A stretch of DNA of 64,000 nucleotides from Candidatus Hodarchaeota archaeon (GCA_048887225.1 JBHLJY010000007.1:51294-115293); one strand, 5' to 3'; numbered from the stretch's first letter, positions 2,226-61,427 are shown. Made by a program: numbers and translations. The notes: a model not told the origin generated them from the sequence alone.

Positions 2226-3464
2226 ATGTCATCTTTTTTTCCAGAAGAGACAATGCAGAGAATAAGATTTCTGCATTATAAAATTAAACAACTAGGAGAC
2301 GCTTTAGAAAACGACGAAGATTTTAGCTTAGACGATCTTAACTTAGTTTTTGAATATACAATGATTTTAAATGTAATTTATAAAAAAGAAGATCACAAAA
2401 AGATTTTAAAAGAATTAGATATAATTCCATCTTTTCATGATCCTATCGAGGACAAAGAGATAGAAATAAATGATTTGATTTTTGAATGCGCTCGTGCTTT
2501 ATGGATATTGGCAAGAGCTTATTCAAAACTTTCAGATAATTTTGAGGATGAGGAAGATTTTGAGAATGCTATAATTGCAATGGTAGAATGTAGCAAGATT
2601 TACAAAGCAGCGGCCTATTTCAGCGCAGCCGCTATTAATCAAAAAGAAAAAAGCAGTACGCTACTCCCTGATAATTTAGAATTAACTTCTGAAGAAGCTC
2701 GCGGGTTGGCTCAAAGTATTGCTGCCGCAAAGGAAGAAGATAATAATAATTTATATTTTTCCTCAAAATTGTATTCAGGACTCTCATTACTATCAAAAAG
2801 ATTATTTTACCTAAAAAAACACAATGAAATAAAAAAACAACAAATAAGAGCCCAATTTCATTATGATATGGGGAAAGCGTGTCACCTAAAAGCCCGTGCA
2901 TCCTTAGAATCTTCGATAACAGATATTAATCTAGAAAAAGTAAAGAAATTAAAACAAAAAGCTCAATTTTACTATTTAAAGGCTAAAGATATCTGGGAAA
3001 ATATGCTTAACAATTTAAAGGATCTTACAAAAAAGGAAGAAGAGAATTTAGATAACAACATATCTGTAGTTAAGGAGCATCTAAATGAAATCGATGAAGA
3101 GATTTTAGATTACGAAGAGATAAAGAGAATTCAGGATCCTGAGCCAGTTATAGTAGTTCCTGAAAATTTAGCGCCTTTTGTACCGAAATCGACAGTATAT
3201 TTAACTAAATTCGTACCGAAAGATTTAAATGTAAAAAGATTTAAGAATTTCCAACGCAAGAAATTGGAACAAAAAATACCTTATAGTAGAAAAGAGAAAC
3301 TAATAGATAAAAAGGCAGGAATCGTTAGAACCTTAAATGAATTAAAACAATTGAAGGATAATAAGGAGATCGCCATAGAGAAATTCGCTGAACTTATGGA
3401 AAAATACTCTACAAAACTTAAAATGGTAGATACGGCTATAGAAAAACTAAATTCTAAGTCTTAA
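2226..3464 (+). CDS. hypothetical all-helical / coiled-coil protein
   Basis: 412 aa long ORF. It has an Ala-rich helical repeat-like core and a K/E-rich C-terminal coiled-coil. No motif recognised. Confidence 0.5.
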   Translation: MSSFFPEETMQRIRFLHYKIKQLGDALENDEDFSLDDLNLVFEYTMILNVIYKKEDHKKILKELDIIPSFHDPIEDKEIEINDLIFECARALWILARAYSKLSDNFEDEEDFENAIIAMVECSKIYKAAAYFSAAAINQKEKSSTLLPDNLELTSEEARGLAQSIAAAKEEDNNNLYFSSKLYSGLSLLSKRLFYLKKHNEIKKQQIRAQFHYDMGKACHLKARASLESSITDINLEKVKKLKQKAQFYYLKAKDIWENMLNNLKDLTKKEEENLDNNISVVKEHLNEIDEEILDYEEIKRIQDPEPVIVVPENLAPFVPKSTVYLTKFVPKDLNVKRFKNFQRKKLEQKIPYSRKEKLIDKKAGIVRTLNELKQLKDNKEIAIEKFAELMEKYSTKLKMVDTAIEKLNSKS

Positions 3465-3530
3465 TTTTTTCTGAAAACTTTAATTTTTTAAATTATTTTC
3501 ATTTTTATTTTAAGAACTCTTTATTTAATC

Positions 3531-3800
3531 ATGTCTGATCAATTGGCATTATTAAAAAATATAAAAAGCATATTATCGGATTTAGTTTATATTAATGGAG
3601 TAATCGCAACAGAAATAATAAGAATTACAGAAAATACTGCTGTTATTCGCCGTGGAGAAGAATTCCTGAATAAAAGTACATGTATTCAAGAACATAATCA
3701 ACTAAATAAACGAATTATAGATATAGTAAAAAAAAACTGTCTTAATTTAGAAGACACCACAAGTTTAAAAAATCATGTTTTAAAACACGGAGACCAATAA
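3531..3800 (+). CDS. hypothetical small protein
   Basis: 89 aa ORF with ATG start in an otherwise empty gap. No motif recognised. Confidence 0.35.
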   Translation: MSDQLALLKNIKSILSDLVYINGVIATEIIRITENTAVIRRGEEFLNKSTCIQEHNQLNKRIIDIVKKNCLNLEDTTSLKNHVLKHGDQ

Positions 3801-3868
3801 AAATAATTCAATTTAAAGCATTTAATTTAAAAGAATAAAAACAATTTAAATTAGCTTAGGGTAATATA

Positions 3869-4591
3869 ATGGATAAGATTAATATAGAAAATATTAATAT
3901 TCCAATAAAAAAGGATAACATTTGCCTTAAGGGGTCTATATATTTTTCTTCAAATACTCCCACTAAGGCTCCTTGGATTATAGTTTTAGCTGGTTTATTA
4001 TATCACAGAGGTAGTAAATTCGTCAAATCCTACATTGAAAGATTTGCTTACGCAGGATATTATGTTTTATCTTATGATTATCGTGGTCATGGTGAAACCG
4101 TTAAAGAAACGGGAAAATTTAAATATATTGAAATGATACCAAAAATTTATTTGGATATTCATGAAGCTATAAGTTGGATATTAGATAAACAATCTAATAG
4201 GATTTTGAACGACAAAATTGTATTATTTGGAAGAAGTGTAGGAGGAGCAATTATATTAACTAATGGTTTTATAGATGAAAGAGCGAAAATCTTAATTCCT
4301 CTTTGTACAAGATATGACTATGCATCTATTGGAATTAAATACCCTCAAAATCTAATTGAAAAAATTAGTCCTAAGTATTTTTTAAAAGAAGATCCGTCAA
4401 ATAATCATAGAATTTTAATAGGGCATTGCAAAGATGATCAGAGAATGCCTTTTGAAAATGTTATACAAATAAAAGAGCATCTTGCTTTAAGTGATGAAAA
4501 TGTTATGATATTTGATGAAGGGGGACATTCCTTCAAAGGACATCGAGAGGAAGTATTTGAACGCTCTATCAATTTTTTAAAAAAATTATAA
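3869..4591 (+). CDS. alpha/beta hydrolase (dienelactone hydrolase / S9-like)
   Basis: 240 aa. Nucleophile elbow GRSVGG, a C-terminal GHCKDD acid and GGHSF histidine, and YDYRGHGET typical of the fold. Confidence 0.7.
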   Translation: MDKINIENINIPIKKDNICLKGSIYFSSNTPTKAPWIIVLAGLLYHRGSKFVKSYIERFAYAGYYVLSYDYRGHGETVKETGKFKYIEMIPKIYLDIHEAISWILDKQSNRILNDKIVLFGRSVGGAIILTNGFIDERAKILIPLCTRYDYASIGIKYPQNLIEKISPKYFLKEDPSNNHRILIGHCKDDQRMPFENVIQIKEHLALSDENVMIFDEGGHSFKGHREEVFERSINFLKKL

Positions 4592-5555: not shown

Positions 5556-6098
5556 TTAATAATTATTTATTATTCCCAAAACTATTCTTCTGGTTTTGTT
5601 TTTTAAATCCTCAATAGTAGAGCTATTTTCTATTTTATATTCAGCTTTCTTAATAACATCCTTTAATCCGAAATGAATTTCCCTTTTGTCCCTTTCTCTT
5701 AATTCACTAATAGTCTTAGGATCATCGCGACGTCCTCTTTCATAAAGTCTTTTGAATCGTATATTTTCATCAATAACCGTTGCTATTAAAGGGAATTTCC
5801 AACTCTTTCTAAATATATTTATTTCTGCGATTGATCTCACACCATCTACAAAGATAACATCGCACTTTAAATTATTAATTAATTCAACGCACATTTTAGC
5901 AATAATTTCTTGTCCACCTTCGTTTCTTAAATTATTTGCAATCTTTCCTAAATTTACGTCTGTAGGTTCGATACCCCTTATTTTTGCTTCGTTCCGTATT
6001 ACATCTCCCATTGTGATTATTGTCCCTAAATCGCTTATTGCTTCCATTGCAGTTGATTTACCGGAACCAGGAAGACCACAGAATCCTATTACTTTCAA
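5556..6098 (-). CDS. P-loop nucleotide kinase, archaeal UPF0200 / CoaE-like family
   Basis: 180 aa. Walker A GLPGSGKST at the N-terminus, and FVDGVRS plus RGRRDD typical of small NMP/dephospho-CoA-kinase-like proteins. Confidence 0.7.
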   Translation of the reverse strand: MKVIGFCGLPGSGKSTAMEAISDLGTIITMGDVIRNEAKIRGIEPTDVNLGKIANNLRNEGGQEIIAKMCVELINNLKCDVIFVDGVRSIAEINIFRKSWKFPLIATVIDENIRFKRLYERGRRDDPKTISELRERDKREIHFGLKDVIKKAEYKIENSSTIEDLKNKTRRIVLGIINNY

Positions 6099-6205
6099 TT
6101 TGGTAAAATTAAATTTTTAAATATAATTTATATATTAAGTTTATATTTAAATTCTATATAGTCTTAATGAAGAAATGATTAAAAACCGTATAAAAAAATT
6201 CATTT

Positions 6206-7318
6206 ATGAATGTAGATCCAATTTCAGATCCTATTTCTGCTCCTGTTTTTCTTTCATATAAAGCATATAGGAGAATCGTTGGATATGCAACTAGGTATGC
6301 TAATAATCATATTGATGAGAAAGACTGGAAGGAAGTTTATGGAATATTAATAGGATCCGTAGAAAAAAATAAAAAAGTAGTTATAAAAGACGCCGTTCCT
6401 GTTTGTACTGGTTTGAGAACAGGAGTAGAATTAGAACCTATACATTATGTAGATTTATCACAAATTGATGCCTCTTTATATGAAAGATTTATTAAAAATA
6501 AAACAACAGATTTTTTTATCGGATGGTGGCATTCACATCCAGGATTAGGTTTTTTCTTTTCAGAAATAGATTGCAAGACGCATTTAGGATATCAAGATAA
6601 AAATCCTTTCGCTATTGGTTTAGTTTTTGACCATACTAAGATGAGTCCAAATTCTTTGGGTATAGCTGCTTTAAGATTAGATAATCCAGAAAAAGGTATA
6701 TTTAGTAAATATGTATTAGTAAAATTAAATTATAAGGGAAAAAAAAAAGCTATAAATCAAAAGATAAAAAAATTAAGAGGTGCTATTCAAAACAACATAA
6801 AGATGGTGCTTAAAGAACTCGATTATATAGATGATATTTTAGTAAGAAGGGAATTAATCAATCTACAGAAAAATTATGGGTTAATTCTAGTTTCAAAAGA
6901 CAACAATTTAGATATTAAAAAGCAAGACAAGGGTAAAATACAGGATGAGAATAAACTATATGTAGGACAGCCAAAAGATTATAAGAAGTCTTATAAAATA
7001 CCAAGATTTAGAAACGAGATCGAAGGAGATTTATTAATGTATTCAACAATTTTAAAACATTTTTCAGAAAGGGGAAATACAATAAAATTTGAAAAGAAAT
7101 TGACTAAGTATAAAAAAAAATTAAGAAAAAGGTTAAAAAAACCTAATCAATGGTATAACCGGTTAATGAATGATTTTACAAAAAGAATTGAGATTATAAA
7201 TCCCTATAAAGATTATTTAGACACCAATGAAAGAAAGATCATAGAAGTTTTTAAAAAAACCATAACAGAATATTATAAAATCTTAAATAATCTAAACAAA
7301 AAAGCAGAGTTAAATTAA
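6206..7318 (+). CDS. JAMM/MPN+ metalloprotease (Rpn11/CSN5-like isopeptidase) with long Lys-rich C-terminal extension
   Basis: Complete JAMM motif: upstream Glu (GVELEP), then WWHSHPGLGFFFSEID, which fits HxHx7Sx2D. About 170 aa of K-rich helical sequence follow the catalytic domain. Confidence 0.8.
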   Translation: MNVDPISDPISAPVFLSYKAYRRIVGYATRYANNHIDEKDWKEVYGILIGSVEKNKKVVIKDAVPVCTGLRTGVELEPIHYVDLSQIDASLYERFIKNKTTDFFIGWWHSHPGLGFFFSEIDCKTHLGYQDKNPFAIGLVFDHTKMSPNSLGIAALRLDNPEKGIFSKYVLVKLNYKGKKKAINQKIKKLRGAIQNNIKMVLKELDYIDDILVRRELINLQKNYGLILVSKDNNLDIKKQDKGKIQDENKLYVGQPKDYKKSYKIPRFRNEIEGDLLMYSTILKHFSERGNTIKFEKKLTKYKKKLRKRLKKPNQWYNRLMNDFTKRIEIINPYKDYLDTNERKIIEVFKKTITEYYKILNNLNKKAELN

Positions 7319-7532
7319 AATGCCTAGTTAATGCAATATAGAAATTTATCAGATGTGCTTTATTGAGAGATAATAAAAACTGTCTGATTTTAGTATTTGC
7401 TTTTTAATACATTTAAATATTTAAAAACTAATAACAAATTAAGAAGTTTTAAAAAATTTTATATTCATAAAAATATACTATTTATTGTATAACTTCTTTT
7501 TAATCAACAACGTAAAATTTTTATGGTTTTAT

Positions 7533-7850
7533 ATGGCTAACGCAAATACGATTTTTATTAAAAATCGACGAGATAAAAGTAAGATCATTAAAGACGCGAT
7601 TTTTGCTTTCTCTGGTGGGCGAAAATCTATTTTAATCAAAGGTGAAGGTGAAGAAATATCAACTGCGGTTGAAATTGCCGAGATTCTAAAAAATCGATTA
7701 TATCCTGGTATAGAAATAGAAAATGTGTCTTTGGGAAGTCGTCCCTTTTATGAACGCAAGCATAGAGGCTATAATTATAGAAATAAATCTAATCAAAATA
7801 AAAAAGATATAATTTCTAAAATCGAAATTTTACTTAAAACTAAATCTTAA
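7533..7850 (+). CDS. albA: DNA/RNA-binding protein Alba
   Basis: NTIFIKNRRDKSKIIKDAIFAFSGGRKSILIKGEGEEISTAVEIAEILKNR matches the Alba fold signature. The ATG at 7533 is preferred over the TTG-extended track ORF at 7485. Confidence 0.8.
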   Translation: MANANTIFIKNRRDKSKIIKDAIFAFSGGRKSILIKGEGEEISTAVEIAEILKNRLYPGIEIENVSLGSRPFYERKHRGYNYRNKSNQNKKDIISKIEILLKTKS

Positions 7851-7889
7851 ATGTAATTCTATGACATTTAAAAAATTTTGTTGTGATTT

Positions 7890-8063
7890 ATGACAATTGG
7901 CTTTAAGAATTTAGGACCTATGATTAAGGAGTTAAGATTACCTGTTGTATGTGAAAAATGTGGTAATTATATATATAAGATGTGGTTTTACGATGAAAAT
8001 TCTAAACATAAGGAAAAAATCGTTTTTGTTTGTAAAAACTGCCATAATAATTCAAAAAAATAG
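7890..8063 (+). CDS. small zinc-ribbon protein (57 aa), absent from the ORF track
   Basis: Hand translation gives MTIGFKNLGPMIKELRLPVVCEKCGNYIYKMWFYDENSKHKEKIVFVCKNCHNNSKK*. It has two CxxC pairs. It lies 39 nt downstream of alba on the same strand. Confidence 0.4.
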   Translation: MTIGFKNLGPMIKELRLPVVCEKCGNYIYKMWFYDENSKHKEKIVFVCKNCHNNSKK

Positions 8064-49605: not shown

Positions 49606-50154
49606 CTAAGCCTTTTTACCCAATTTGTTTAAAATATTATGGACCAGATTTTCAAAAGCCTTTTCTACATTCTCGCCATATTTTGCGGAAGTTTCTATGA
49701 AATCACTCGCATTAATTTCGCTCCCAAAACTACTACCCTCCTCTGTTGACACTACTCGCTGTTCCGATAAATCAGTCTTGTTTCCAATTAAAATATAAGT
49801 CCCTTCTTTTTTAACATATTTATTGAAATCCCGCAACCATTTAGAATTAATTGTCTCAAAAGTAGCACGTCTAGTTATGTCATAAACTAATAACGCTCCA
49901 ACGCATCCTTGGAAATACATTGAGCGAATTACATTATATTTTTCTTGTCCAGCAAGGTCCCACATTATAAGGCGAACATTAGCATTAATTTTTTCCAAAT
50001 GCATATCCTTTCTAATTATGTTCGCCCCAAGCGTAGGTTTATAATCTTCCTGAAACGAATGTTCTATATACTGGTTAATTAGAGATGTTTTACCTACAGC
50101 TGCATCTCCCAAAACCACTATTTTGAACACGAATTCTTTAACTTCTTCCGACAT
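49606..50154 (-). CDS. small GTPase, Rab-like
   Basis: G1 GDAAVGKTS, switch I TLGANI, G3 WDLAGQ, G4 GNKTD, G5 TSAKYG. Close paralogue of 50809..51345. Confidence 0.9.
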   Translation of the reverse strand: MSEEVKEFVFKIVVLGDAAVGKTSLINQYIEHSFQEDYKPTLGANIIRKDMHLEKINANVRLIMWDLAGQEKYNVIRSMYFQGCVGALLVYDITRRATFETINSKWLRDFNKYVKKEGTYILIGNKTDLSEQRVVSTEEGSSFGSEINASDFIETSAKYGENVEKAFENLVHNILNKLGKKA

Positions 50155-50202
50155 TTTTAATATCTCTATCCTTGTAATTATTATATTTTTTTTATTCTTT
50201 AT

Positions 50203-50709
50203 TTATTTTTTCCATATTAATTTCAAAATATATGGTTTATGAGTAAGATCTGGTATCTTTTCATCTTCATTTGTATAAATAACTCTTCTATTGTCTGGTA
50301 TCGCTTTTTTTAAAGAAGTGACGAGAAAACCAGTGAATAAATTGCATGGAACTCCAACCTCACTGCAAAAAATACAATTTTGAATTTCAACTGTAACAGA
50401 ATTTTTTCCTTGATCTATTATTCGAACGGCCCAATTTGTTTTAATTAATACGTTAATTTCTTGAATTATTTCTTCAAAAGGTTTTCCCCAGGGAAAAAGA
50501 TAAAAAGCAAATTTTTTACCGACTTCATATTGAAGTCTGTAACATCCGTATAACAATAATTCTTGAGCTTTGATGATTTTCTTAAAAGATAAAAAATCTA
50601 TCGTATCGTTTGGATCTACATTTTTGTTATCTTTTATCTTTAACATATCAGCTTCTCTTAACACAGATTTCATTCCATCGTAATCAAGAATATCTAAATA
50701 AGCTTGCAA
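50203..50709 (-). CDS. V4R-like domain protein (partial motif), function unknown
   Basis: 168 aa, TTG start. IQNCIFCSEVGVPCNLFTGFLVTSL matches the first half of the V4R Cys motif (C..C.....PC....G.l). The terminal E..C...G..C.F block was not seen. Confidence 0.45.
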   Translation of the reverse strand: MQAYLDILDYDGMKSVLREADMLKIKDNKNVDPNDTIDFLSFKKIIKAQELLLYGCYRLQYEVGKKFAFYLFPWGKPFEEIIQEINVLIKTNWAVRIIDQGKNSVTVEIQNCIFCSEVGVPCNLFTGFLVTSLKKAIPDNRRVIYTNEDEKIPDLTHKPYILKLIWKK

Positions 50710-50808
50710 TAGAGCCGTAACAACCTTGTTTTTTACTTCCTCTTTATATTCGCCTACTATTAAAGTTCACCAATTATTAATATTGCAATCAACAAAATTT
50801 AATCCCAT

Positions 50809-51345
50809 TTAAATTTTCACTCCATAATTACTTAAAATGTTATAGGCTAAATTTAAAAACGCTTTTTCAACGTTTTTTCCAGTTTTGGCACTTGTTTCTA
50901 TGAATTCAATTGCTTTAATTCGCTCCGCCATGTTATGAGCATCATCTTTAAAAACATATCTTTGCTCTTCTAAATCGGCTTTGTTTCCAATTAAAATATA
51001 TGATCCCTCTTTTTCGACATGGTTTTTATAATCTGTAAGCCACTTATACTCAACATTTTCAAAGGAAGAATATCTAGTAATATCGTAAACTAATAACGCT
51101 CCTGCGCATCCTTCATAATATGCACCCCTAGTTTTTTCATATTGTTCTTGTCCAGCAATATCCCAGAGAATTAAACGAGCATTGGAATTAATTTGCTCTA
51201 ATTTGATGGTTTTCATGATTAAATTCACGCCCATAGTTGCTTTGTAATCTTCTTTAAACCTTTCCTCTACAAATTGGTTTACTAATGATGTTTTCCCAAC
51301 TCCAGTGTCTCCTAATACTGCAAGTTTTAATACGTAGTCTGACAT
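50809..51345 (-). CDS. small GTPase, Rab-like
   Basis: G1 GDTGVGKTS, switch I TMGVNL, G3 WDIAGQ, G4 GNKAD, G5 TSAKTG. Confidence 0.9.
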   Translation of the reverse strand: MSDYVLKLAVLGDTGVGKTSLVNQFVEERFKEDYKATMGVNLIMKTIKLEQINSNARLILWDIAGQEQYEKTRGAYYEGCAGALLVYDITRYSSFENVEYKWLTDYKNHVEKEGSYILIGNKADLEEQRYVFKDDAHNMAERIKAIEFIETSAKTGKNVEKAFLNLAYNILSNYGVKI

Positions 51346-51367: not shown

Positions 51368-51796
51368 TTAAAGATCTAAAAGAGATAATCCAAATTGTGG
51401 ATCAACAGCACGATTTAATTTTTGACCAATTTCATAAATATAAACTTCTCCAGTAATGGAAACGATTGATGGTGTACTTAAATGACCCCCAATAATATTA
51501 TAATCCTCTCTACCAACTGATACATGGATATGTATTATTGGTTCTCCATCCTTATAAGAAATATTTCCCATGCAAGAAATTAATTCAACATTTTCTTCAA
51601 AAGTTTTAAAATTATATTTTTTTTCCTTAATATTAAAATATCCGATTGTGAATTTTTTAAAAGCTCCAATAACGTTGATTAATCCGGCTTTAATATTATA
51701 TTTTTTAACAATTTCTTTTATAGCATCAATTAAATCCTCATCAGCCATTACTCTCGCAACAATAACCCTACCGATATTTGTTTCGATACTTTTCAT
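51368..51796 (-). CDS. PPC / DUF296 domain protein
   Basis: 142 aa. Contains IGRVIVARV..DEDLIDAI, AGLINVIGAF, and ELISCMGNISYKDGEPIIHIHVSVG, typical of DUF296 (COG1661). Confidence 0.7.
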   Translation of the reverse strand: MKSIETNIGRVIVARVMADEDLIDAIKEIVKKYNIKAGLINVIGAFKKFTIGYFNIKEKKYNFKTFEENVELISCMGNISYKDGEPIIHIHVSVGREDYNIIGGHLSTPSIVSITGEVYIYEIGQKLNRAVDPQFGLSLLDL

Positions 51797-52033
51797 TTTT
51801 TTAGAAAGATCTATCAGATTTTTTAGCGTTTATATTCAAGGAATACTTAAAATTACTATAAAATTCTTTAAATCCAATGTTTTTTATATTTTTTTTATAA
51901 TTTTACTTTTATTTATAGATTTGGTTTTTTATAATGACATGAATTGTTATTACTATTTTTTTCTAAGAGTAAAAAATTAATTATTCTGATTTTTATATAA
52001 TTTAACAATCAATGAATTTGTAATATTTTAATT

Positions 52034-52930
52034 ATGAGCGAAAAGGTCACGATTTCTGGCGTTGAATTGAAGTTAACCGAGCCTGCTGAAGTTGATATGG
52101 CGTGGGTTGGTAATGAAGATATAATTAATGAATTAAAAGCGGCATGGATGGTTGTTGATGAGAAAGAGGATCTCCCACTAAATCCTAGAATATTAGGAAA
52201 ACCTGGAGTGGGAAAAACAACGCTTGCATATGCTACTGGTAAATTGTTAAATAAGTATGTTTATATATTTCAGTGTACAATGGACACCAGACCAGAGGAT
52301 CTTTTAATTAGCCCGGTTATTTCCTCTGATAATAAAATTGCTTATGTTGCTAGTTCGTTAGTGTCTGCTATGATTAAAGGAGGTGTATGTCTTTTGGACG
52401 AAGGGAATCGTATGAGCGAGAAAAGCTGGGCCTCTTTAGCTCCATTGATGGACAAGCGACGTTACGTGGACTCGATAATAGCAGGTATAAGAATTTATGC
52501 TCATCCCGATTTTCGCTTATGTGTTACTATGAATAGCGACAGTAGCACCTATGAAGTCCCAGAATATATTCAATCTCGTCTACAACCTAAAGTTTATATC
52601 GATTTTCCCAATAGAGTTGACGAATTAAAAATTTTAAAATATAATTTACCGTTTGCTTCAGATAAAATTTTGGAATATTGTGTAGATTTTCTCCAGAATG
52701 CACATATTCACGATGAGCCATTTACGGTAAGAGAAGGCATAAATATTGTAAGGTATTACGTTAAAACTCGGTCTTTAAACGGAAAAGATAAAATTACTTT
52801 AAATAAAAAAGAATTCAAAAGTTCTATTGCACACATTTTAGAAGAAAGTTCGAAAAGATATTGTCCCGATGAATATGAGGAATTTTTAGAAAAGCAAAAA
52901 GAAGAATTTTCAGATCGTCTCCTATTTTAA
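52034..52930 (+). CDS. AAA+ ATPase, MoxR / AAA_5 (dynein-related) type
   Basis: 298 aa. Walker A GKPGVGKTT, Walker B VCLLDEGNR, and a single AAA module with a short lid. Confidence 0.8.
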   Translation: MSEKVTISGVELKLTEPAEVDMAWVGNEDIINELKAAWMVVDEKEDLPLNPRILGKPGVGKTTLAYATGKLLNKYVYIFQCTMDTRPEDLLISPVISSDNKIAYVASSLVSAMIKGGVCLLDEGNRMSEKSWASLAPLMDKRRYVDSIIAGIRIYAHPDFRLCVTMNSDSSTYEVPEYIQSRLQPKVYIDFPNRVDELKILKYNLPFASDKILEYCVDFLQNAHIHDEPFTVREGINIVRYYVKTRSLNGKDKITLNKKEFKSSIAHILEESSKRYCPDEYEEFLEKQKEEFSDRLLF

Positions 52931-53027
52931 ATAAATTTTTAATATTTTATAATCATTGGACTAAAAAAGATTTAAAAATTAAATTACAAAATATAACACA
53001 ACTAAAAATAAGACGTGATAATAAGAA

Positions 53028-53780
53028 ATGTCGAATGAAAATGTAAATAGGGAATTGTCGAATTTTGGGAGAAGAATGAAAATATTAGCGATAATGACGC
53101 TTGTAGGTTTCATATTGGGCATAGTAGGATGGTTTATAAATGTAACAATTATTAGTATTATAATAAGTATAATTATTATAATCTATTTCCTATTATTGCT
53201 AGGGAATATTAAGAGAGCTGGTAGAACACTTAATAATAAAGATTTACTATCATTTTCTCCTAGATTTTTATGGGGGACTATTATAAGATTCATTGGGAAC
53301 CAATTATTTGGAATTGGAATTTTATTCATATTGATACTTATATATGGTGGAGAACCTCTCGCAACAGTGATCCCTTTTATAATAACGGCACTTATAGGTG
53401 TAGCCCTTATAATCATAGGATCGATATTAAGATTTATGGCATGGGGAGGTTTAGCTACTTTTTTTGAAACAAATTATCAACTATTTCCCCCAAATATCAG
53501 TGGTAATGGAAAAACGGGAGCTAAAATGTGTAAAATTGCAACTATTCTTGACATGACAATATTTCTTTCATCTATTGGAGATATTTTAAGGATAATAGGA
53601 TATTTCAAATTGGCTTCCTTAAAAGATTTAATAGGAGCTCCAGTTCAGCCAGTACCTCAGCCTTTAGCGCCAATGCCTACTCCTGTAGAAGCTCCATCAG
53701 CGAATTTTTGTCCAGAATGTGGAAGTGCTATTACTCAAGGAGCAAGATTTTGTCCAAGTTGTGGAAGTGAAATACTTTAA
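53028..53780 (+). CDS. membrane protein with C-terminal Pro-rich linker and double zinc ribbon
   Basis: 250 aa with about 5 TM segments, then PVQPVPQPLAPMPTPVEAP, then FCPECGSAITQGARFCPSCGSEI. Confidence 0.65.
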   Translation: MSNENVNRELSNFGRRMKILAIMTLVGFILGIVGWFINVTIISIIISIIIIIYFLLLLGNIKRAGRTLNNKDLLSFSPRFLWGTIIRFIGNQLFGIGILFILILIYGGEPLATVIPFIITALIGVALIIIGSILRFMAWGGLATFFETNYQLFPPNISGNGKTGAKMCKIATILDMTIFLSSIGDILRIIGYFKLASLKDLIGAPVQPVPQPLAPMPTPVEAPSANFCPECGSAITQGARFCPSCGSEIL

Positions 53781-53898
53781 TCTTTTTTTTTTATTTTAAT
53801 TTTAATTTAAACATTTTTATTATTGTAATAACTCTAAAACATGATAACTTAATCTTTGAGCTTAGAAATATAATATAAACCTATAGGAACAATTCTGA

Positions 53899-55893
53899 AT
53901 GAATAAAACTCCATATCTTAAGTATAAAAACATTTACGTCATTCCATCTTTTCATTCGAGAATAGAATTTTCTAAATTAGTTCGTACAGCATATTTTTTG
54001 GTATTTCCAGATGTAATCGCAGTTGAATTACCAGACAATATAAGAAACGAAGTAATAGAAGGAATAGAAAGATTACCGTTTTTATCTTTAATTGCGTACA
54101 CAGATACACTCAGTCCAAAAAAAATGAATTTTGTACCTATTGATCCAGGAGATTCAATTATAGAAGGGATAAAGATCGGATTAGAATTTGGTGTTCCAAT
54201 TGAGTTTATTGATTTATCTATAACAGATTATTTGCCAACCAGCTTTAGACTACCAGATGATCATTCTTTAAATGAAATAGGACTGCCCTTATTTTACCAA
54301 AAAATTTCAAAATATTTTAGAAAAGAATTTATGACCAAAAAAATAGAATTAAGAGATAAATTAAGTTTAGAGGATTATTTAAAAAACCAAGAAAATCGAG
54401 AGCAAAAATATGACTTTTTAGAGAAGGATGTACTTCGCGAGAGATATATGGCATCGCATCTTTTAAAAATGATGCCTTTATATCATAGAATCTTGTTTAT
54501 TGTAGGTATGGCTCATTGGGAAAATATTAAATATTATTTAGAGAATCCCGAAAAAATTCAGGATGTAGAATTAGATTTAATCCCTTATAAATTTGTTAAA
54601 ATCTATAATGTGAAAAATAAGGACGCTCGATTCCTTTTAAGAGAATTACCTTATAATACCTACAAATGGTTAAAATTCAAAGAAAAATATTCAAAGGAAG
54701 TCTTAGAAGAACTTGAATCTCCAAATGAATTATATACGATTCTTGAATCTTATAATAAAATTGATCATATTAGAAAGATATTTTTAAAAGCGAAATATGA
54801 TTACGAGGAAGAATTTAAAGAATTTGTTGATCTTCACAAATTAAAAACATTGTTTCAATATTCAAGGAATTTATCATTAGCAGAACAAAGATTATTGCCT
54901 AACCTTGCACATTTATTAATTTCTTCTAAAAATATCGTTGATGACGATTACGCTTGGAAAGTATTAAAAAAAGCAACTAAATATCCTTATGATGATGAAA
55001 GCAATAAATATGAAACGATGAAATTAAGCTTAGAAGGGGGATACGATCCTAGTGGACGATATATAAAATTGAGAAGACGCCATCCTTATGACTATGGTAA
55101 AGAGCGAGAGGTTCCTCTAAACAAACGACCTGAAGAAGAATATGAAGGACAATGGAGAGATGAATGGGAAGAAGGTAAATGGAATACCGTTTCGTGGCCT
55201 CCAGAGGATATAATTGAGGAGGATTATTTCGCTTATATTCGTAAGAGAGCGCTTAAGAACCTTAAAAATCAGCGAATTAAAATAGAAGAATTCAAATCGA
55301 GTCTAATGGATGGCATCGCAATTAAAGAAACAATTAGAAATTGGGCTTTTAAGAAAAAAATTTATGTGCGAAACGAACAACAAATTCAAGGAAAAATTGA
55401 TACTCTTGTTGTCATTTTCGATCAGGATGATGAAGATGTGGAGAAATACCCTTATAGATTAACCTGGTGGGCGGAACATGATAGAGAAAGCGATATGGCC
55501 TTCTACTCAACACTTCCAGGAGACTATTTAATTGGACCAGGAATCTCTCATGTAGAGATAGGAGGGATTTTATCTATTTTTCCTCCTCCGAGATTAAAAG
55601 AGGTCTTTAGATCGTATATGGATTATGAGTATCGCGATACTCTTAATAAAGCTGAAAGGCTTTTGAAGGCAGCCATCCTATATTCGAAAGAAAGATATAT
55701 AATATATGTTGGGGAAGAAACACCAAGGAAATACTTCTATTCTATGGCAGGAGTTAAAAATAGAGAAATTTTATATATCCCATTAGATTATTTTAGTCAA
55801 GAATCACTCAAAACCATTAAACATATTCATATACTTGCCGGAAAAGACAAAAGGAAAATTGCTCATAACTATATCTTTTTAGACACACATTAA
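53899..55893 (+). CDS. large protein with TraB/GumN-like N-terminal domain (DUF5682-like, tentative)
   Basis: 664 aa. The N-terminal IPSFHSRIEFSKLVRTAYFLVFPDVIAVELPDN and the later RERYMASHLL...RILFIVGMAHWENI resemble TraB-family blocks (GTAHVS..PD.VaVEL / ERD..MA...vVGaGH). The remaining ~450 aa are unrecognised. Confidence 0.5.
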   Translation: MNKTPYLKYKNIYVIPSFHSRIEFSKLVRTAYFLVFPDVIAVELPDNIRNEVIEGIERLPFLSLIAYTDTLSPKKMNFVPIDPGDSIIEGIKIGLEFGVPIEFIDLSITDYLPTSFRLPDDHSLNEIGLPLFYQKISKYFRKEFMTKKIELRDKLSLEDYLKNQENREQKYDFLEKDVLRERYMASHLLKMMPLYHRILFIVGMAHWENIKYYLENPEKIQDVELDLIPYKFVKIYNVKNKDARFLLRELPYNTYKWLKFKEKYSKEVLEELESPNELYTILESYNKIDHIRKIFLKAKYDYEEEFKEFVDLHKLKTLFQYSRNLSLAEQRLLPNLAHLLISSKNIVDDDYAWKVLKKATKYPYDDESNKYETMKLSLEGGYDPSGRYIKLRRRHPYDYGKEREVPLNKRPEEEYEGQWRDEWEEGKWNTVSWPPEDIIEEDYFAYIRKRALKNLKNQRIKIEEFKSSLMDGIAIKETIRNWAFKKKIYVRNEQQIQGKIDTLVVIFDQDDEDVEKYPYRLTWWAEHDRESDMAFYSTLPGDYLIGPGISHVEIGGILSIFPPPRLKEVFRSYMDYEYRDTLNKAERLLKAAILYSKERYIIYVGEETPRKYFYSMAGVKNREILYIPLDYFSQESLKTIKHIHILAGKDKRKIAHNYIFLDTH

Positions 55894-55959: not shown

Positions 55960-57675
55960 TTACTTTTCAATAGACTCTACATATTCTGAAATTTTCTCAG
56001 TTATTATTTCTGGTTTCTCGGCTTCGGCACCCTTTTTCACATGAGCAAGTTCCAAGCGCTCCCTATGCAAGGTATTCATAGCACAAAAGGGCACTTCCAA
56101 AACTTTGGTTGGGTCATCTGGGTCAATTATTCCATAGTGTACAAGACAGGACTTTATCCTATTAAGGTCAAAATTATAAGCGTCTTGAAAATGCATTGCA
56201 CTAACAAGCATATTGCCAGTAAGTAAAAAGTTGCCAGCTGTTCTCATGTTTGGAGCAATTACTAGTTTGCCTAATGATTGAAAAAATTTGCTATCTAACA
56301 CTTTTTTAATTTTTACATATTTAAACATACCAGCAAAGAAATAGGCCTTCATCATTTGCCTATAGCCAATATTGGTCATATCATCGATAAATTTTCCAAC
56401 TGTAGCTGCAAGGCTACCATAATCCGCTAAATTAATGTTTCCTAAAAGACCGGTAGGTTTTGGCACTTCCCTCGATTGGACCATGTCGTAGACTTTGTTA
56501 GACCATCTAAGTAATCCTTCTACATCTACATAATGTTCAATGGGTTCCCACTCATTATTTTTGTTTATGATCCCTATAGTGGCAAAACCACAGTCGTGAT
56601 GGCTTGTAGTTGACCAATTCGGAGCATCATCAAACCATGCTAATAATCCCGTGAATTTGGCAGTTGTTGCGAGAGGATAAAATTTTGTAATCATATTATT
56701 TGTTGCTTTATTAATATCTACTTTTAGGTCGGAAGTTGTGTATCTTAAATCCATTAATTCTTCGAAACTTATACGACCACATAGAGAAACTGGTTGGAAA
56801 ACCACACCCCCACATATGTCTTTATATTCTTTGGCAAATTCCATAATTGGGCCAACTTGACTGTCGTTTACACCTTTAGCTATAACAGGGACTAACATAA
56901 GAGTAATTCCGCCTACTTTTCGAATATTATCAACAGCTCTCTTTTTGATGGGCCAAAGATTAACTCCTCTTACTTTTTTCCAAACCTCAGGAGCGTCGGT
57001 TGCATCAAACTGTAAATATATAGTATCGAGTCCAGCATCTTTCATTTCTTGAAGATATTCAATTGATTTAGCAATTCTTATCCCATTTGTTGAGACCATA
57101 ATATCAAGAAATCCCATCTCTTTACCTACTCGAATCATTTCTGGGAGATCGTCTCGAAGCGTTGGTTCTCCGCCAGCAAATTGAAGCAAAACTGCTGGAG
57201 TTGGTTTCATAGATCTAAAATGTTCCATAATTTGTATGATATCGTCGAAACTAGGCTCAACAACATAACCTTTCGCACTCGCATTCGCGAAACAGATAGG
57301 GCATGCCAGATTACACCTATTAGTGATATCTATTAAACATATACAAGGAGCACTTAGATGATTCTTACAAATGCCACAATCATAGGGACATCCTTTCGCA
57401 TCTTCCCTAATTCCTGAAGATACTTCACAAGGTTTCGTTGAAATTTTATCGCCTTTTGTCGAACCGATTTCTTCTGTAAATTTCATGCTCCACTTGTAAT
57501 CGTCAGCATTGATGGAGATTTTATCCTTGAACTCGCCATGATCTTCACAAGTTTTTCGAAGCATTACATAATTATTTGTAGGATCTACATAAAATTGCGC
57601 TGGTATTTGCGTTAAGCATTCTGGGCACAAAGACATAGTTTCCCGTACAATCTCATACTCTGTCATAAAAATCAA
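55960..57675 (-). CDS. radical SAM enzyme, COG1964-type (tetraether lipid synthase Tes/GDGT-MAS-like candidate)
   Basis: Contains the N-terminal zinc-ribbon-like CPEC...CEDHG, the Cys-rich CPYDCGICKNH...PC, and the radical SAM CNLACPIC (Cx3Cx2C). Length is about 570 aa. The likely true start is the ATG at 57666 (MTEYEIV). Confidence 0.8.
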   Translation of the reverse strand: MIFMTEYEIVRETMSLCPECLTQIPAQFYVDPTNNYVMLRKTCEDHGEFKDKISINADDYKWSMKFTEEIGSTKGDKISTKPCEVSSGIREDAKGCPYDCGICKNHLSAPCICLIDITNRCNLACPICFANASAKGYVVEPSFDDIIQIMEHFRSMKPTPAVLLQFAGGEPTLRDDLPEMIRVGKEMGFLDIMVSTNGIRIAKSIEYLQEMKDAGLDTIYLQFDATDAPEVWKKVRGVNLWPIKKRAVDNIRKVGGITLMLVPVIAKGVNDSQVGPIMEFAKEYKDICGGVVFQPVSLCGRISFEELMDLRYTTSDLKVDINKATNNMITKFYPLATTAKFTGLLAWFDDAPNWSTTSHHDCGFATIGIINKNNEWEPIEHYVDVEGLLRWSNKVYDMVQSREVPKPTGLLGNINLADYGSLAATVGKFIDDMTNIGYRQMMKAYFFAGMFKYVKIKKVLDSKFFQSLGKLVIAPNMRTAGNFLLTGNMLVSAMHFQDAYNFDLNRIKSCLVHYGIIDPDDPTKVLEVPFCAMNTLHRERLELAHVKKGAEAEKPEIITEKISEYVESIEK

Positions 57676-60089: not shown

Positions 60090-61427
60090 TTAACTCTTTC
60101 TGTGTTTTTTTAGTTGATCTAACCATTTTTCTAAGTCAGTTTTAGTTGTTTCGCGTTCATCTGGTTCACGTCCGATTTTTTTTTGTTCAATTTTTTCAAT
60201 CTCGGATTCGAGTTTTTCACCTATTGCTTTTACATCAGCTTTCAAACTTTGCCGTTTTTCGTCCAATTCACGTTGTTTATCTATTCTAAAGGCTTTTTCC
60301 CCAACTGAATGAGTTATAGCTTTAGCTGAAGTTTCCATATCAGGTTTTAACTCTTTAAGTTCAGTGTCCCTCTCTCTTTTTTTGTCAATCATGAATGCTT
60401 TTTCACTGACAGACTTACTTATGGCTTCAGCAGTGCTCTCTATTCTTGGTTTCAATTCTTTAAGTTGAATATCTTTTTCTCTTTTCTTTTCAATCATGTG
60501 AGCTTTTTCTTCGATTGATTTACTTATTGCTTTGGCAGATTTTTCCATGTCCGGTTTTAATACTTTGCGTAGAGTATCTCGTTCTTTTTGTTTCTCGATC
60601 ATAAAGGCTTTTTCGCCGATAATTTTGTTAATCGCCTCGGCAGATTTCTCAATTTCAGGTTTTAATTTCTTAAGTTGAATACTTTTTTCCCTCTGTTTTT
60701 CGATCATAAAAGCTTTTTCTCCGACAGATTTTCTAATTGCTTCAGCGGTACTTACTATTCTGGGCTTCAATTCTTTAAGTTGAATGTCTTTGTCTCTTTT
60801 CTTTTCAATCATATAAGCTTTTTCTTCGATTGATTTACTTATTGCTTCGGCAGATTTTTCCATGTCCGATTTTAATTCCTTGCGTTGAGCATTTCTCTCT
60901 TTCTTCTTTTCAATCATAAAGGCTTTTTTGTCGACAGATTTGCTAATTGCTTCCATTGATTTTGCTATGTTTGGTTTCAAACCTTTAAGTTGAGCGTCTC
61001 TTTCCCTCTGTTTTTCGATCATAAAAGCTTTTTCGCTGACAGATTTACTTATAGCCTCAGCGGTGCTTTCTATTCTGGGTTTCAATTCTTTAAGTTGAAT
61101 TTCTTTTTCTCTTTTTTTGTCGATCATATATGCTTTTTCTCCAATTGATTTGCTGATTATCTCGGCAGATTTTTCAATGTCTGGTTTTATTCCTATACGT
61201 TGAAGATCCTTTTCTCTTTTTTTATCAATCATAAAAGCTTTTTCGCCAATAGATTTTTCTATTTGTGTTTTACTTTCTTCGAAAGATTTCTTTCTTCGTT
61301 CTTCAGTTTTTTTTAAATATTTTTCTCTCTCCTCCTTTTCTTGTTTGAATAGATCTTCAATAATTTTTTTCTGTTTTTTGACGTCTTCTGGATCTAATGG
61401 TTTTTCATTTTCTTCCATAAAATTCAC
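60090..61427 (-). CDS. repeat protein: ten tandem 35-aa Lys/Glu-rich helical repeats
   Basis: 445 aa. The motif (E/S)KA(F/Y)MI(D/E)K recurs at residues 61, 96, 131, 166, 201, 236, 271, 306, 341 and 376, an exact period of 35. Confidence 0.75.
   Translation of the reverse strand: MNFMEENEKPLDPEDVKKQKKIIEDLFKQEKEEREKYLKKTEERRKKSFEESKTQIEKSIGEKAFMIDKKREKDLQRIGIKPDIEKSAEIISKSIGEKAYMIDKKREKEIQLKELKPRIESTAEAISKSVSEKAFMIEKQRERDAQLKGLKPNIAKSMEAISKSVDKKAFMIEKKKERNAQRKELKSDMEKSAEAISKSIEEKAYMIEKKRDKDIQLKELKPRIVSTAEAIRKSVGEKAFMIEKQREKSIQLKKLKPEIEKSAEAINKIIGEKAFMIEKQKERDTLRKVLKPDMEKSAKAISKSIEEKAHMIEKKREKDIQLKELKPRIESTAEAISKSVSEKAFMIDKKRERDTELKELKPDMETSAKAITHSVGEKAFRIDKQRELDEKRQSLKADVKAIGEKLESEIEKIEQKKIGREPDERETTKTDLEKWLDQLKKHRKS
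60228..61280 (-). repeat. coding tandem repeat, 105 bp unit, organised in 315 bp (3-unit) super-repeats
   Basis: DNA segments about 315 bp apart are near-identical. One example is ttcaatcat(a/g)t(a/g)agctttttcttcgattgatttacttattgctt(c/t)ggcagatttttccatgtcc at about 60490 and about 60800. Protein units 2-3-4, 5-6-7 and 8-9-10 correspond. Confidence 0.85.

Follow-up and report, generated by a model that had tools for sequence, protein, structure and literature searches.

A widely conserved two-gene module of a MoxR-class ATPase and a partner protein with an orphan core domain, in Asgard archaea and bacteria

Few AAA+ proteins are as widespread as the MoxR ATPases, and few are as poorly understood; models at present take it that a VWA-domain partner acts with them. 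In McrB-McrC, one effector subunit is inserted in the pore of an NTPase ring; McrBC is also one of the defence systems that combine an AAA_5 NTPase with a large effector. Midasin carries six AAA modules plus a MIDAS domain. In NorQ/NorD, a single partner of ~70 kDa sits on the NorQ hexamer and reaches into its pore with a beta "finger", and CbbQ has been said to resemble McrB (PMC9976466). The TIKI hydrolases have a 2His/2Glu hydrolase chemistry, and RRSP, a Tiki-fold protease, cleaves switch I of Ras and Rap1 (PMC6254334). Here we describe an ATPase gene and a partner gene found in 64,000 nucleotides (nt) of Candidatus Hodarchaeota archaeon (GCA_048887225.1, JBHLJY010000007.1:51294-115293), a stretch that we call the window. 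A first-pass annotation had likened this locus to a bacterial cluster of MoxR, DUF5682, VWA and SWIM proteins. Such a cluster exists: E. coli yehLMPQ is annotated as a MoxR ATPase, YehM, a VWA protein and a SWIM protein, and YehM matches Pfam DUF5682 over its full length (330.8 bits). The module in the window is a different one. It is an undescribed, widely conserved pair of a MoxR ATPase and a partner with an orphan core domain, and literature searches on YehM, on MoxR with TraB and on MoxR with Asgard returned no description of it.

The window is AT-rich (GC 0.26-0.36). Three co-directional open reading frames (ORFs) lie on its positive strand, as originally described: an AAA_5/MoxR-class ATPase of 298 residues (52034..52930), a membrane zinc-ribbon protein of 250 residues (53028..53780) and the 664-residue partner (53899..55893), with spacers of 97 and 118 nt. 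They are real genes rather than chance ORFs, since they have hundreds of homologues and their closest relatives are 55-92% identical. The unit that is conserved elsewhere consists of the first and the last of them, an AAA_5/MoxR-class ATPase of 270-300 residues encoded directly upstream of, and co-directionally with, a partner of ~590-770 residues.

A copy of the partner that is 100% identical is recorded at NCBI for a "Candidatus Hodarchaeota" metagenome-assembled genome (MAG), and its relatives are found in Promethearchaeota/Lokiarchaeota MAGs. At the Promethearchaeota loci L001, L003, L004 and L013/L014, the ATPase gene is upstream of the partner gene on the same strand. The two genes overlap by 8 nt in L004, where the partner is 75% identical to that of the window, and are separated by 59 nt in L013/L014 (76%) and by 70 nt in L003 (60%). 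The L001 partner is 56% identical, and the ATPase is still upstream. At more distant loci, namely L006 (Wallbacteria), L007/L008 (a JGI metagenome contig) and L009/L010, a gene for a 272-292 residue AAA_5 protein stands directly upstream of the partner, with a 4-nt overlap of the two genes in L009, and the other neighbours all differ. The ATPase is also directly upstream in Neochlamydia (L143), where RefSeq names the pair "AAA family ATPase" and "hypothetical protein."

A broader sample came from GTDB, with one genome per species, scanned with a degenerate DNA pattern back-translated from the C-terminal partner motif E[HN]xxES-x6-T-x7-GPG[IV]-x5-GG. This motif is carried by 91 of 136 diverse partner members. 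The scan yielded at least 120 stretches, and a hidden Markov model identified all 120 of those listed as true partner members, with 0 false positives. Counts from GTDB given here and below are among the matches listed. The 5' end of the partner gene and enough upstream DNA were present in 77 loci, each seen as an 8-kb stretch. The ATPase was directly upstream in 64 of these 77 informative loci (83%), which bears out the expectation that an AAA_5 ATPase of this kind is paired with a large partner. Aligned-end gaps between the two genes ranged from -2 to 275 nt, and the ATPase was displaced by 417 nt in one locus and by 5.1 kb in another. Planctomycetota without an ATPase in the 8-kb stretch were seen at L030, L033, L035, L046, L049, L058, L069, L098 and L109, and Rhodopirellula baltica and Roseiconus nitratireducens are among the Planctomycetota of this kind. 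All-against-all ORF clustering of the GTDB loci detected no recurrent third gene; the largest clusters comprised at most 10 loci, all of them from Nitrospira. Across the related loci examined, the trio seen in the window is syntenic nowhere, but the ATPase-partner pair is.

An exhaustive profile search placed the partner family at 1,273 clusters at 50% identity with E<=1e-3, and at 289 with E<=1e-30, the named members including Helarchaeota and Wallbacteria. In the species-genome sample the family is predominantly bacterial and is carried by at least about a dozen bacterial phyla. Carriers include Planctomycetota, Acidobacteriota, Nitrospirota, Nitrospinota, Thermodesulfobacteriota, Desulfuromonadaceae/Geobacter, Chlamydiota, Verrucomicrobia, Fibrobacteria, Gemmatimonadetes, Myxococcota, Omnitrophota and others. 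Among cultured organisms, it is found in Rhodopirellula baltica, Roseiconus nitratireducens, Geomonas edaphica, Paludibaculum fermentans and Thermodesulfobacterium thermophilum; Geobacter MAGs carry it as well.

The two proteins diverged together. Over 57 loci, the pairwise identities of the ATPase and of the partner were correlated with r=0.94 (Mantel p=0.001). As a comparison of sequences, this correlation shows co-inheritance; it is not by itself proof of interaction, because shared phylogeny contributes to it. Taken with the synteny, the sequences make it very probable that ATPase and partner form a two-gene co-inherited module. It is a chromosomal module; no third gene is conserved with it, and the VWA partner usual in MoxR systems is missing. 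In Promethearchaeota the neighbourhood of the pair is stable, with genes for Cdc48, small GTPases, an aminotransferase, a Tes-like radical SAM enzyme and a PCC-domain protein, and between relatives the partner has 55-86% identity. This suggests a cellular function passed on by vertical descent, and not a defence island.

A TtcA-family gene (tRNA 2-thiocytidine, PP-loop) was considered as a third component and set aside: 6 loci have one, but it is directly upstream at no more than 4, and these four are from the Planctomycetota-Verrucomicrobia-Chlamydiota (PVC) lineage or probably so. It precedes the ATPase gene co-directionally in L009 (6164-7048), in the Parachlamydiaceae locus L016 (7624-7998), in L097 from a Verrucomicrobia MAG (7261-7998) and in L143 from Neochlamydia pS13 (3130-3876). 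In L041 it is separated by a gap of ~660 nt, and in L093 it is found ~1.8 kb downstream. The adjacency is PVC-lineage synteny, possibly with a local functional link. The gene order in L009 (GCA_037189325.1, contig JBBCKK010044700.1) is recombinase, SEC-C, TtcA-like, AAA ATPase, partner, SurE and YitT. This is also the order on plasmid pS13 of Neochlamydia sp. S13, and the 661-kb contig probably belongs to a chlamydial symbiont in that assembly.

The ATPase is a single AAA+ module of ~300 residues and is of the MoxR class, passing both relevant Pfam cutoffs: AAA_5 with 61.5 bits (1.1e-16; cutoff 22) and AAA_3 with 29.7 bits (6.8e-07; cutoff 27). The Walker A and Walker B motifs from which the module had been recognized, GKPGVGKTT and LLDEGNR, are both present, at residues 55-63 (52196..52222) and 120-126 (52391..52411) on the positive strand. 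On the same strand, and assigned by position only, are candidates for the sensor-1 region (TMNS, 52526-52537), the Arg finger (within QSRLQ, 52571-52585) and sensor 2 (VREGIN, 52727-52744). An alignment of ATPases of the module together with YehL (alignment A5) has G55, P57, G58 and K61 invariant, and K61, E123, R126, T165, N167 and R182 are invariant throughout, YehL included.

Within this alignment the module's own ATPases are 53-75% identical to each other, and the window ATPase is 53-57% identical to those adjoining partner homologues in Wallbacteria and at other distant loci. Its identity to E. coli YehL is 20%, with a BLASTP E value of 0.95, which is not significant. Between Asgard archaea and bacteria, the ATPases average 0.54 identity and the partners 0.29. 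By these alignments the ATPase is a distinct and strongly constrained MoxR subfamily, neither orthologous to YehL nor of the YehL type. Its top solved relatives by sequence are the AAA modules of midasin/Rea1 (E=1.4e-12), followed by CbbQ and NorQ (~1e-5). "Midasin" is also the annotation on one JGI homologue of the ATPase. Judged from the alignments, the similarity to midasin is not an Asgard-eukaryote signature, because the same ATPase subfamily is present, at 53-57% identity, in bacteria. No VWA match was found among the window neighbours or at related loci.

The partner is a cytosolic protein with no transmembrane (TM) segment and belongs to an unnamed family. AlphaFold2 gave a model with a mean predicted local distance difference test (pLDDT) score of 93.7 and a predicted template modelling score (pTM) of 0.89 when run on the 136-sequence alignment; with 23 close homologues, pLDDT was 55.7. 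By secondary structure, the modelled protein has four parts: a TraB/Tiki-like alpha/beta domain (residues 1-240; 53899..54618), a helical middle (241-363) followed by a beta-hairpin/charged-loop segment (364-429; both within 54619..55185), and an orphan C-terminal alpha/beta domain (430-664; 55186..55890), all on the positive strand. The least confident part of the model is segment 364-429, at the loop around residues 390-410.

The first-pass annotation had noted TraB/GumN-like blocks in the first ~210 residues, namely FPDVIAVELPDN and ERYMASHLL...IVGMAHW. Both blocks are present, and the kinship they implied is upheld by hhalign and Foldseek, but it lies below the thresholds of Pfam and TIGR00261. 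The window partner matched nothing in Pfam at E<=0.1, TraB (PF01963) and DUF5682 (PF18934) included. The sole family-level signal was TIGR00261 traB, with 24.7 bits against a cutoff of 178, over residues 79-225. When the profile of the partner family was aligned with a 17-sequence DUF5682 profile, hhalign returned a probability of 94.3% (E=1.1e-7) over query residues 12-363, and the N-domain alone (1-240) returned 96.9% (E=1.4e-10). The middle and C-terminal regions, taken separately, gave no hhalign match to DUF5682; the alignment of the full profile extends to residue 363, and the middle region alone matches nothing. The motifs of the partner fall in register with those of YehM: FHSR with RHHS, AVELP with LIEGP, RERYMA with REAFMA, and VGMAHW with CGGWHA.

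In Foldseek, the top match in BFVD was "TraB family protein [Marseillevirus]" (E=2.6e-4, probability 1.00, 259 columns). The top match in PDB was chain E of Tetrahymena complex IV (E=5.6e-3). That complex includes a TraB-family accessory subunit (PMC10060162), which chain E presumably is. TM-scores were low, because the query has several domains. Three distant partner members reach 25-28 bits on PF18934 over short N-terminal stretches, and some have sub-threshold matches to PF01963 or DUF5694; a single-sequence comparison of the window partner with E. coli YbaP was not significant. From predicted fold and remote homology, the N-domain is TraB/Tiki-like and homologous to the N-terminus of DUF5682/YehM. 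The partner does not reach the thresholds for membership of PF01963, TIGR00261 or PF18934; for DUF5682 there is no PF18934 match, and the homology falls short of the full ~700-residue architecture.

The N-domain of the window partner carries a candidate His/Glu/His set composed of H19 (in FHSR), E43 (AVELP), R180-E181 (RERYMA) and H206 (VGMAHW). H19, E43 and H206 align with an invariant H, E and H of YehM. In the Asgard alignment, E43 and H206 never vary, and at least 90% of the sequences have H19. In a dedicated L-INS-i alignment of the GTDB set, the H19/E43/H206 triad was intact in 10 of 11 genomes of Desulfobacterota/Thermodesulfobacteriota/Geobacter, in 4/4 of Chlamydiota/Verrucomicrobia and in 5/8 of others. 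It was replaced in 23 of 25 Acidobacteriota (H19 to P, H206 to L or M), in 20 of 21 Planctomycetota (E43 to P, H206 to D) and in 9/9 Nitrospirota/Nitrospinota. The higher figure of 82-86% retention among representatives is biased, these having been ranked by similarity to the Asgard profile. Because the Tiki residues are lost in most bacterial lineages, hydrolysis by the N-domain is not a function of the whole family. The window partner may still hydrolyse a substrate through this domain; judging from its residues, the case for an active Tiki-type hydrolase in the Asgard partner falls a little short of even.

The most conserved part of the family is the C-domain, ~235 residues long (430-664), with the motifs SWPPEDIIEE, SSLMDGIAIKETIRNW, WWAEHDRESDMAFYST, GPGISHVEIGG and HIHILAGKDKRKIA. 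Residue counts were made in 78 independent full-length species representatives from the GTDB matches. E436, D437, E441, G472, E526, E530, S531 and R652 are present in 78 of 78 genomes, and H644 (77), R480 (77), D471 (75) and T478 (74) are nearly invariant; the 136 representatives gave similar figures. Searches with ten diverse C-domains found nothing in Pfam even at E<=10, and there was no match in NCBIfam or to PDB sequences. Nor did Foldseek return a match assignable to the C-domain, despite the pLDDT of 93.7. The ~450 residues beyond the TraB-like blocks, which could not be assigned at first reading, indeed match no family in Pfam, NCBIfam or the PDB sequences. We lean towards the C-domain as the functional centre of the partner. 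The most conserved domain of this VWA-less partner is one that has no relative in Pfam, NCBIfam or PDB.

Several candidate identities for the C-domain were rejected. A second TraB domain arising by internal duplication had an hhalign probability of 0.3%. A "Mor" helix-turn-helix at the extreme C-terminus was a weak, recurrent match below threshold, and the model has helix-strand-helix there. For an HxxE...H zinc peptidase (H527-x-x-E530...H644), H527 is Asn in ~10% of members, and there was no match to such a fold. A cryptic VWA domain does not count as a finding, its only trace, a weak match to YehP, being unsupported by Pfam (E<=10) or Foldseek; it is retained solely as part of an alternative explanation considered below.

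The reading that we favour, at a probability of about one half, is that the pair constitutes a self-contained chromosomal machine of undescribed type, a MoxR motor plus an effector, whose biochemical function is proposed by analogy. A physical ATPase-partner complex is likely. In such a complex, the ATPase would form a hexameric ring docking one molecule of the partner, as NorQ does with NorD and McrB with McrC. Docking would probably be through the beta-hairpin/charged-loop segment (~365-430), by analogy a putative "finger" for the ATPase pore, and/or through the C-domain. ATP hydrolysis would then power conformational changes in the partner and in anything bound to it. In the C-domain, the invariant residues (acidic, His, Arg, Ser and Thr) would cluster into a working centre, which would be a catalytic site or else a metal or ligand pocket with the role that the VWA MIDAS has in other MoxR systems. 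Since the loci show no conserved client gene next to the pair and the invariant residues of the C-domain are enzyme-like, the partner is probably itself the effector, and its substrate would be a cytosolic one that is present in cells generally. The Tiki-type His/Glu/His set retained in the Asgard clade would probably contribute a hydrolytic step, of a peptidase or an esterase; in most bacterial lineages, the N-domain site would be dead and the domain a scaffold.

A number of observations weigh against this reading. The ATPase is missing from the 8-kb stretch in 11 of the 77 informative loci, 9 of them Planctomycetota, so the linkage is not obligatory. A mirror-tree correlation can also arise from shared phylogeny alone. 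The Tiki-type residues are lost in 56 of the 78 sampled bacterial and archaeal genomes. That the invariant C-domain residues cluster in one pocket is an assumption. Co-transcription in the window is doubtful, because the ATPase gene and the inserted gene are each followed by an oligo-T run. Finally, full-text literature searches found nothing on DUF5682 or on the ATPase/partner pairing.

The main competing explanation is that the partner is a mere adaptor tethering the MoxR ring to a client encoded elsewhere, as in NorQ/NorD, CbbQ/CbbO and CoxD/CoxE. The client would receive cofactor insertion or reactivation, and the C-domain would be VWA-like, though cryptic and highly derived. Characterised MoxR ATPases all act in this manner (PMC3893208; PMC9976466), and the solved structures related to the ATPase include those of CbbQ and NorQ. 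The C-domain segment DGIDxRETIRNW..KIYV also gives a weak hhalign match to the pre-VWA segment of YehP (probability 11%, E=0.0028), after which the family's VVIFDxD strand is placed opposite LVLLVDQSGSM, the VWA beta1/MIDAS of YehP. However, client genes, a feature of the nor, cbb and cox clusters, are not conserved next to the pair. Ten diverse C-domains had no VWA or VWA_CoxE match at E<=10, and Foldseek with the pLDDT-93.7 model returned no VWA fold. Moreover, the equivalent of the first MIDAS Asp is variable in the sequences compared (D/E/N/R/S), and the DxSxS motif is not present. We consider a pure adaptor unlikely, though it is the alternative that fares best.

A much weaker case can be made for a role in conflict or in defence against phages, with an effector linked to a MoxR-type NTPase as in MoxR-vWA ternary systems or McrBC. 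AAA_5 NTPases with large effectors are familiar from defence systems, the ATPase has a weak PADLOC match to TRIP13 (E=7.5e-5), and the Neochlamydia pair lies near genes for an AbiEi antitoxin and a recombinase. But the partner has no match in PADLOC or PHROG, the middle protein has none in PADLOC, and no defence-type genes recur near the pair. In a tblastn search, the partner was found on 1 of 72,556 plasmids, a non-mobilizable Neochlamydia replicon of 231 kb, and in 0 phages. The neighbourhood in Promethearchaeota, with Cdc48, the aminotransferase and Tes, is stable and of a housekeeping type. The 55-86% identity of the partner across relatives suggests vertical inheritance and purifying selection rather than patchy turnover. 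A defence role is therefore very improbable.

The gene that separates ATPase and partner in the window bears on the proposal made in the first-pass annotation, that all three genes form an archaeal variant of YehLMPQ in which a membrane zinc-ribbon protein replaces the VWA and SWIM partners. Its product had been described as having ~5 TM segments and a Pro-rich linker with a double zinc ribbon. By hydropathy, there are four strongly hydrophobic segments within residues 15-146, and the fifth is a single weaker, amphipathic candidate judged by eye. The Pro-rich linker is there (205-223), but the C-terminal ribbon (228-246) is a single one, with four Cys in two CxxC knuckles. The zinc ribbon is also all that Pfam recognizes in this protein (residues 227-248; Zn_Ribbon_1, 34.9 bits). 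The double-ribbon label was discarded, as the DZR model covers only positions 1-19 of 45 and is below cutoff.

Apart from the co-directional, closely spaced genes of the window and the homology of the partner N-domain to DUF5682, the evidence contradicts a three-gene system. The membrane zinc-ribbon gene is not between the pair in L003, L004, L013 or L014, whose partners are 60-76% identical to that of the window, and it was found in the slot at no bacterial locus examined. Thus, only ATPase and partner are conserved, and even loci with 76%-identical partners lack the third gene. A metagenome scan with the middle protein retrieved matches to the zinc-ribbon tail alone (residues ~210-249) and no full-length homologue. 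In L001, the slot holds an unrelated GFO_IDH_MocA oxidoreductase gene on the opposite strand (5940-6920). L011, with an 86%-identical partner, has an upstream stub (1-221) that matches neither the zinc-ribbon tail nor the ATPase tail. A T10 run follows the stop codon of the middle gene, and a T5 run that of the ATPase gene. Since it is absent in relatives, is replaced by a different gene in L001 and has no full-length homologue, the middle gene is, by sequence comparison, a lineage-specific local insertion outside the module, in a variable slot. This slot (window 52931-53898) seems to accept insertions, the zinc-ribbon gene here and the oxidoreductase gene in L001. Nor does the zinc-ribbon protein replace VWA or SWIM partners, because its gene is absent from the slot in relatives and from bacterial loci and it has no full-length relatives. 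As to an archaeal variant of YehLMPQ, the ATPase is not of the YehL type, being 20% identical to it, and the pair is predominantly bacterial in the species-genome sample, occurring in about a dozen phyla. As a conserved system, the three-gene model is already refuted, and any residual form of it has very little to recommend it.

Asgard genomes hold very many small-GTPase genes, and with genes so numerous, adjacency within one close lineage counts for little. An Asgard-specific small-GTPase regulator, whose Tiki-type site would cleave or process the upstream Ras-like GTPases, has the precedent of RRSP (PMC6254334), Ras-family genes flanking the module in the window (49606-50154 and 50809-51345) and in L001, L003, L004 and L013, and a co-directional GTPase gene immediately upstream of the ATPase in L013, but it is the least probable explanation of all, as annotated bacterial loci have no small-GTPase genes beside the pair, no neighbour family recurs across lineages, and the invariant core of the partner family is the C-domain and not the Tiki site.

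The Ras-family genes merit a remark of their own. In the window (49606-51345, negative strand), two of them flank an ORF of 168 residues (50203-50709) with no Pfam match. In the relatives L001, L003, L004 and L013, a gene for a Pfam-less protein of 187-197 residues adjoins Ras-type GTPase genes, with flanking on both sides in L004 only. The product may be an uncharacterised GTPase partner; an RRSP-type link of the GTPase genes to the module is speculative.

Other features of the surroundings are given for completeness. Convergent with the partner gene is a gene for a radical SAM protein with an HMPTM-type zinc ribbon (55960-57675, negative strand), a position kept in L001, L003, L011 and L013. 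The protein scores 414 bits on the NCBIfam model "tetraether lipid synthase Tes" (rSAM_GDGT_ether), the cutoff of which is 450; a Tes-like enzyme in a Lokiarchaeia-type genome bears on questions about Asgard membrane lipids. A 445-residue Lys/Glu-rich protein (60090-61427, negative strand) contains 8.7 tandem copies of a 105-nt (35-residue) unit, detected by TRF as an array at 60343-61256 with 70% matches and the unit form ...SAEAISKSxxEKAFMIEKxRExxxQLKELKPxxE. Upstream of the ATPase gene, a low-complexity ORF of 136 residues rich in Ile, Phe and Leu (51570-51980, positive strand) is partly antisense to a PCC-domain gene (51368-51796, negative strand) and is most likely spurious, a product of AT-rich DNA.

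For genome annotation, the practical outcome is a concrete definition of a two-gene module and a diagnostic signature, the C-terminal motif used for the GTDB scan. As the partner family is present in cultured organisms (Geomonas, Paludibaculum, Rhodopirellula and Thermodesulfobacterium), its function is directly testable. The module is a wide-reaching counter-example to the assumption that MoxR ATPases have a VWA partner. It would be bolder, and quite improbable at present, to see in it a new class of AAA+ machine, in which the orphan, apparently new-fold C-domain replaces the VWA MIDAS as the working end of a MoxR system, and in which the Asgard, Desulfobacterota and Chlamydiota branches, with their intact Tiki site, would be ATP-dependent peptidases or esterases. 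If true, this would add to the Lon, Clp, FtsH and proteasome families a new, separate type of energy-dependent hydrolase.

Among the described systems, YehL-YehM-YehP-YehQ, of unknown function, has the same layout of an AAA_5 MoxR ATPase directly upstream of a large cytosolic protein. YehM shares with the partner a homologous TraB/Tiki-like N-domain, with the H, E-x-P, RE..M and G..H motifs in the same register. In contrast, the module lacks VWA and SWIM genes, both in the window and at the related loci examined, and its ATPase is only 20% identical to YehL. YehM in turn lacks the C-domain motifs of the partner family, and the middle and C-terminal regions of the partner, taken separately, do not match DUF5682. 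The comparison clarifies DUF5682/YehM itself, since the TraB-like head emerges as a module common to at least two different MoxR-linked architectures.

NorQ/NorD, CbbQ/CbbO, RavA/ViaA and CoxD/CoxE resemble the module in having a single-module MoxR ATPase of ~30 kDa and an adjacent, dedicated partner of ~70 kDa, and the stoichiometry and pore docking that we expect of the module are borrowed from this group. The partner differs in that it has no detectable VWA domain or MIDAS and no adjacent client operon, and in having a TraB/Tiki-like domain instead. Eukaryotic midasin/Rea1 provides the best-scoring solved relatives of the window ATPase; it is a protein of ~4,700-4,900 residues, whereas the window ATPase is a single free-standing module.

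Members of the TIKI/TraB/PrgY/GumN/erythromycin-esterase superfamily (Tiki1, RRSP, TRABD and PrgY) share with the partner an alpha/beta fold and have a His...Glu...His set, the candidate residues for which are intact in the Asgard clade. Unlike them, the partner is below all curated TraB thresholds and is not membrane-anchored, and its head is fused to ~420 more residues and coupled to an AAA+ ATPase. McrB-McrC differs from the module in its DNA-binding McrB N-domain, its PD-(D/E)xK nuclease signature and its defence context, none of which was detected in the module. What the two have in common is an arrangement of two genes, one for an AAA_5-class ring NTPase and one for a larger effector, that dispenses with a VWA domain.

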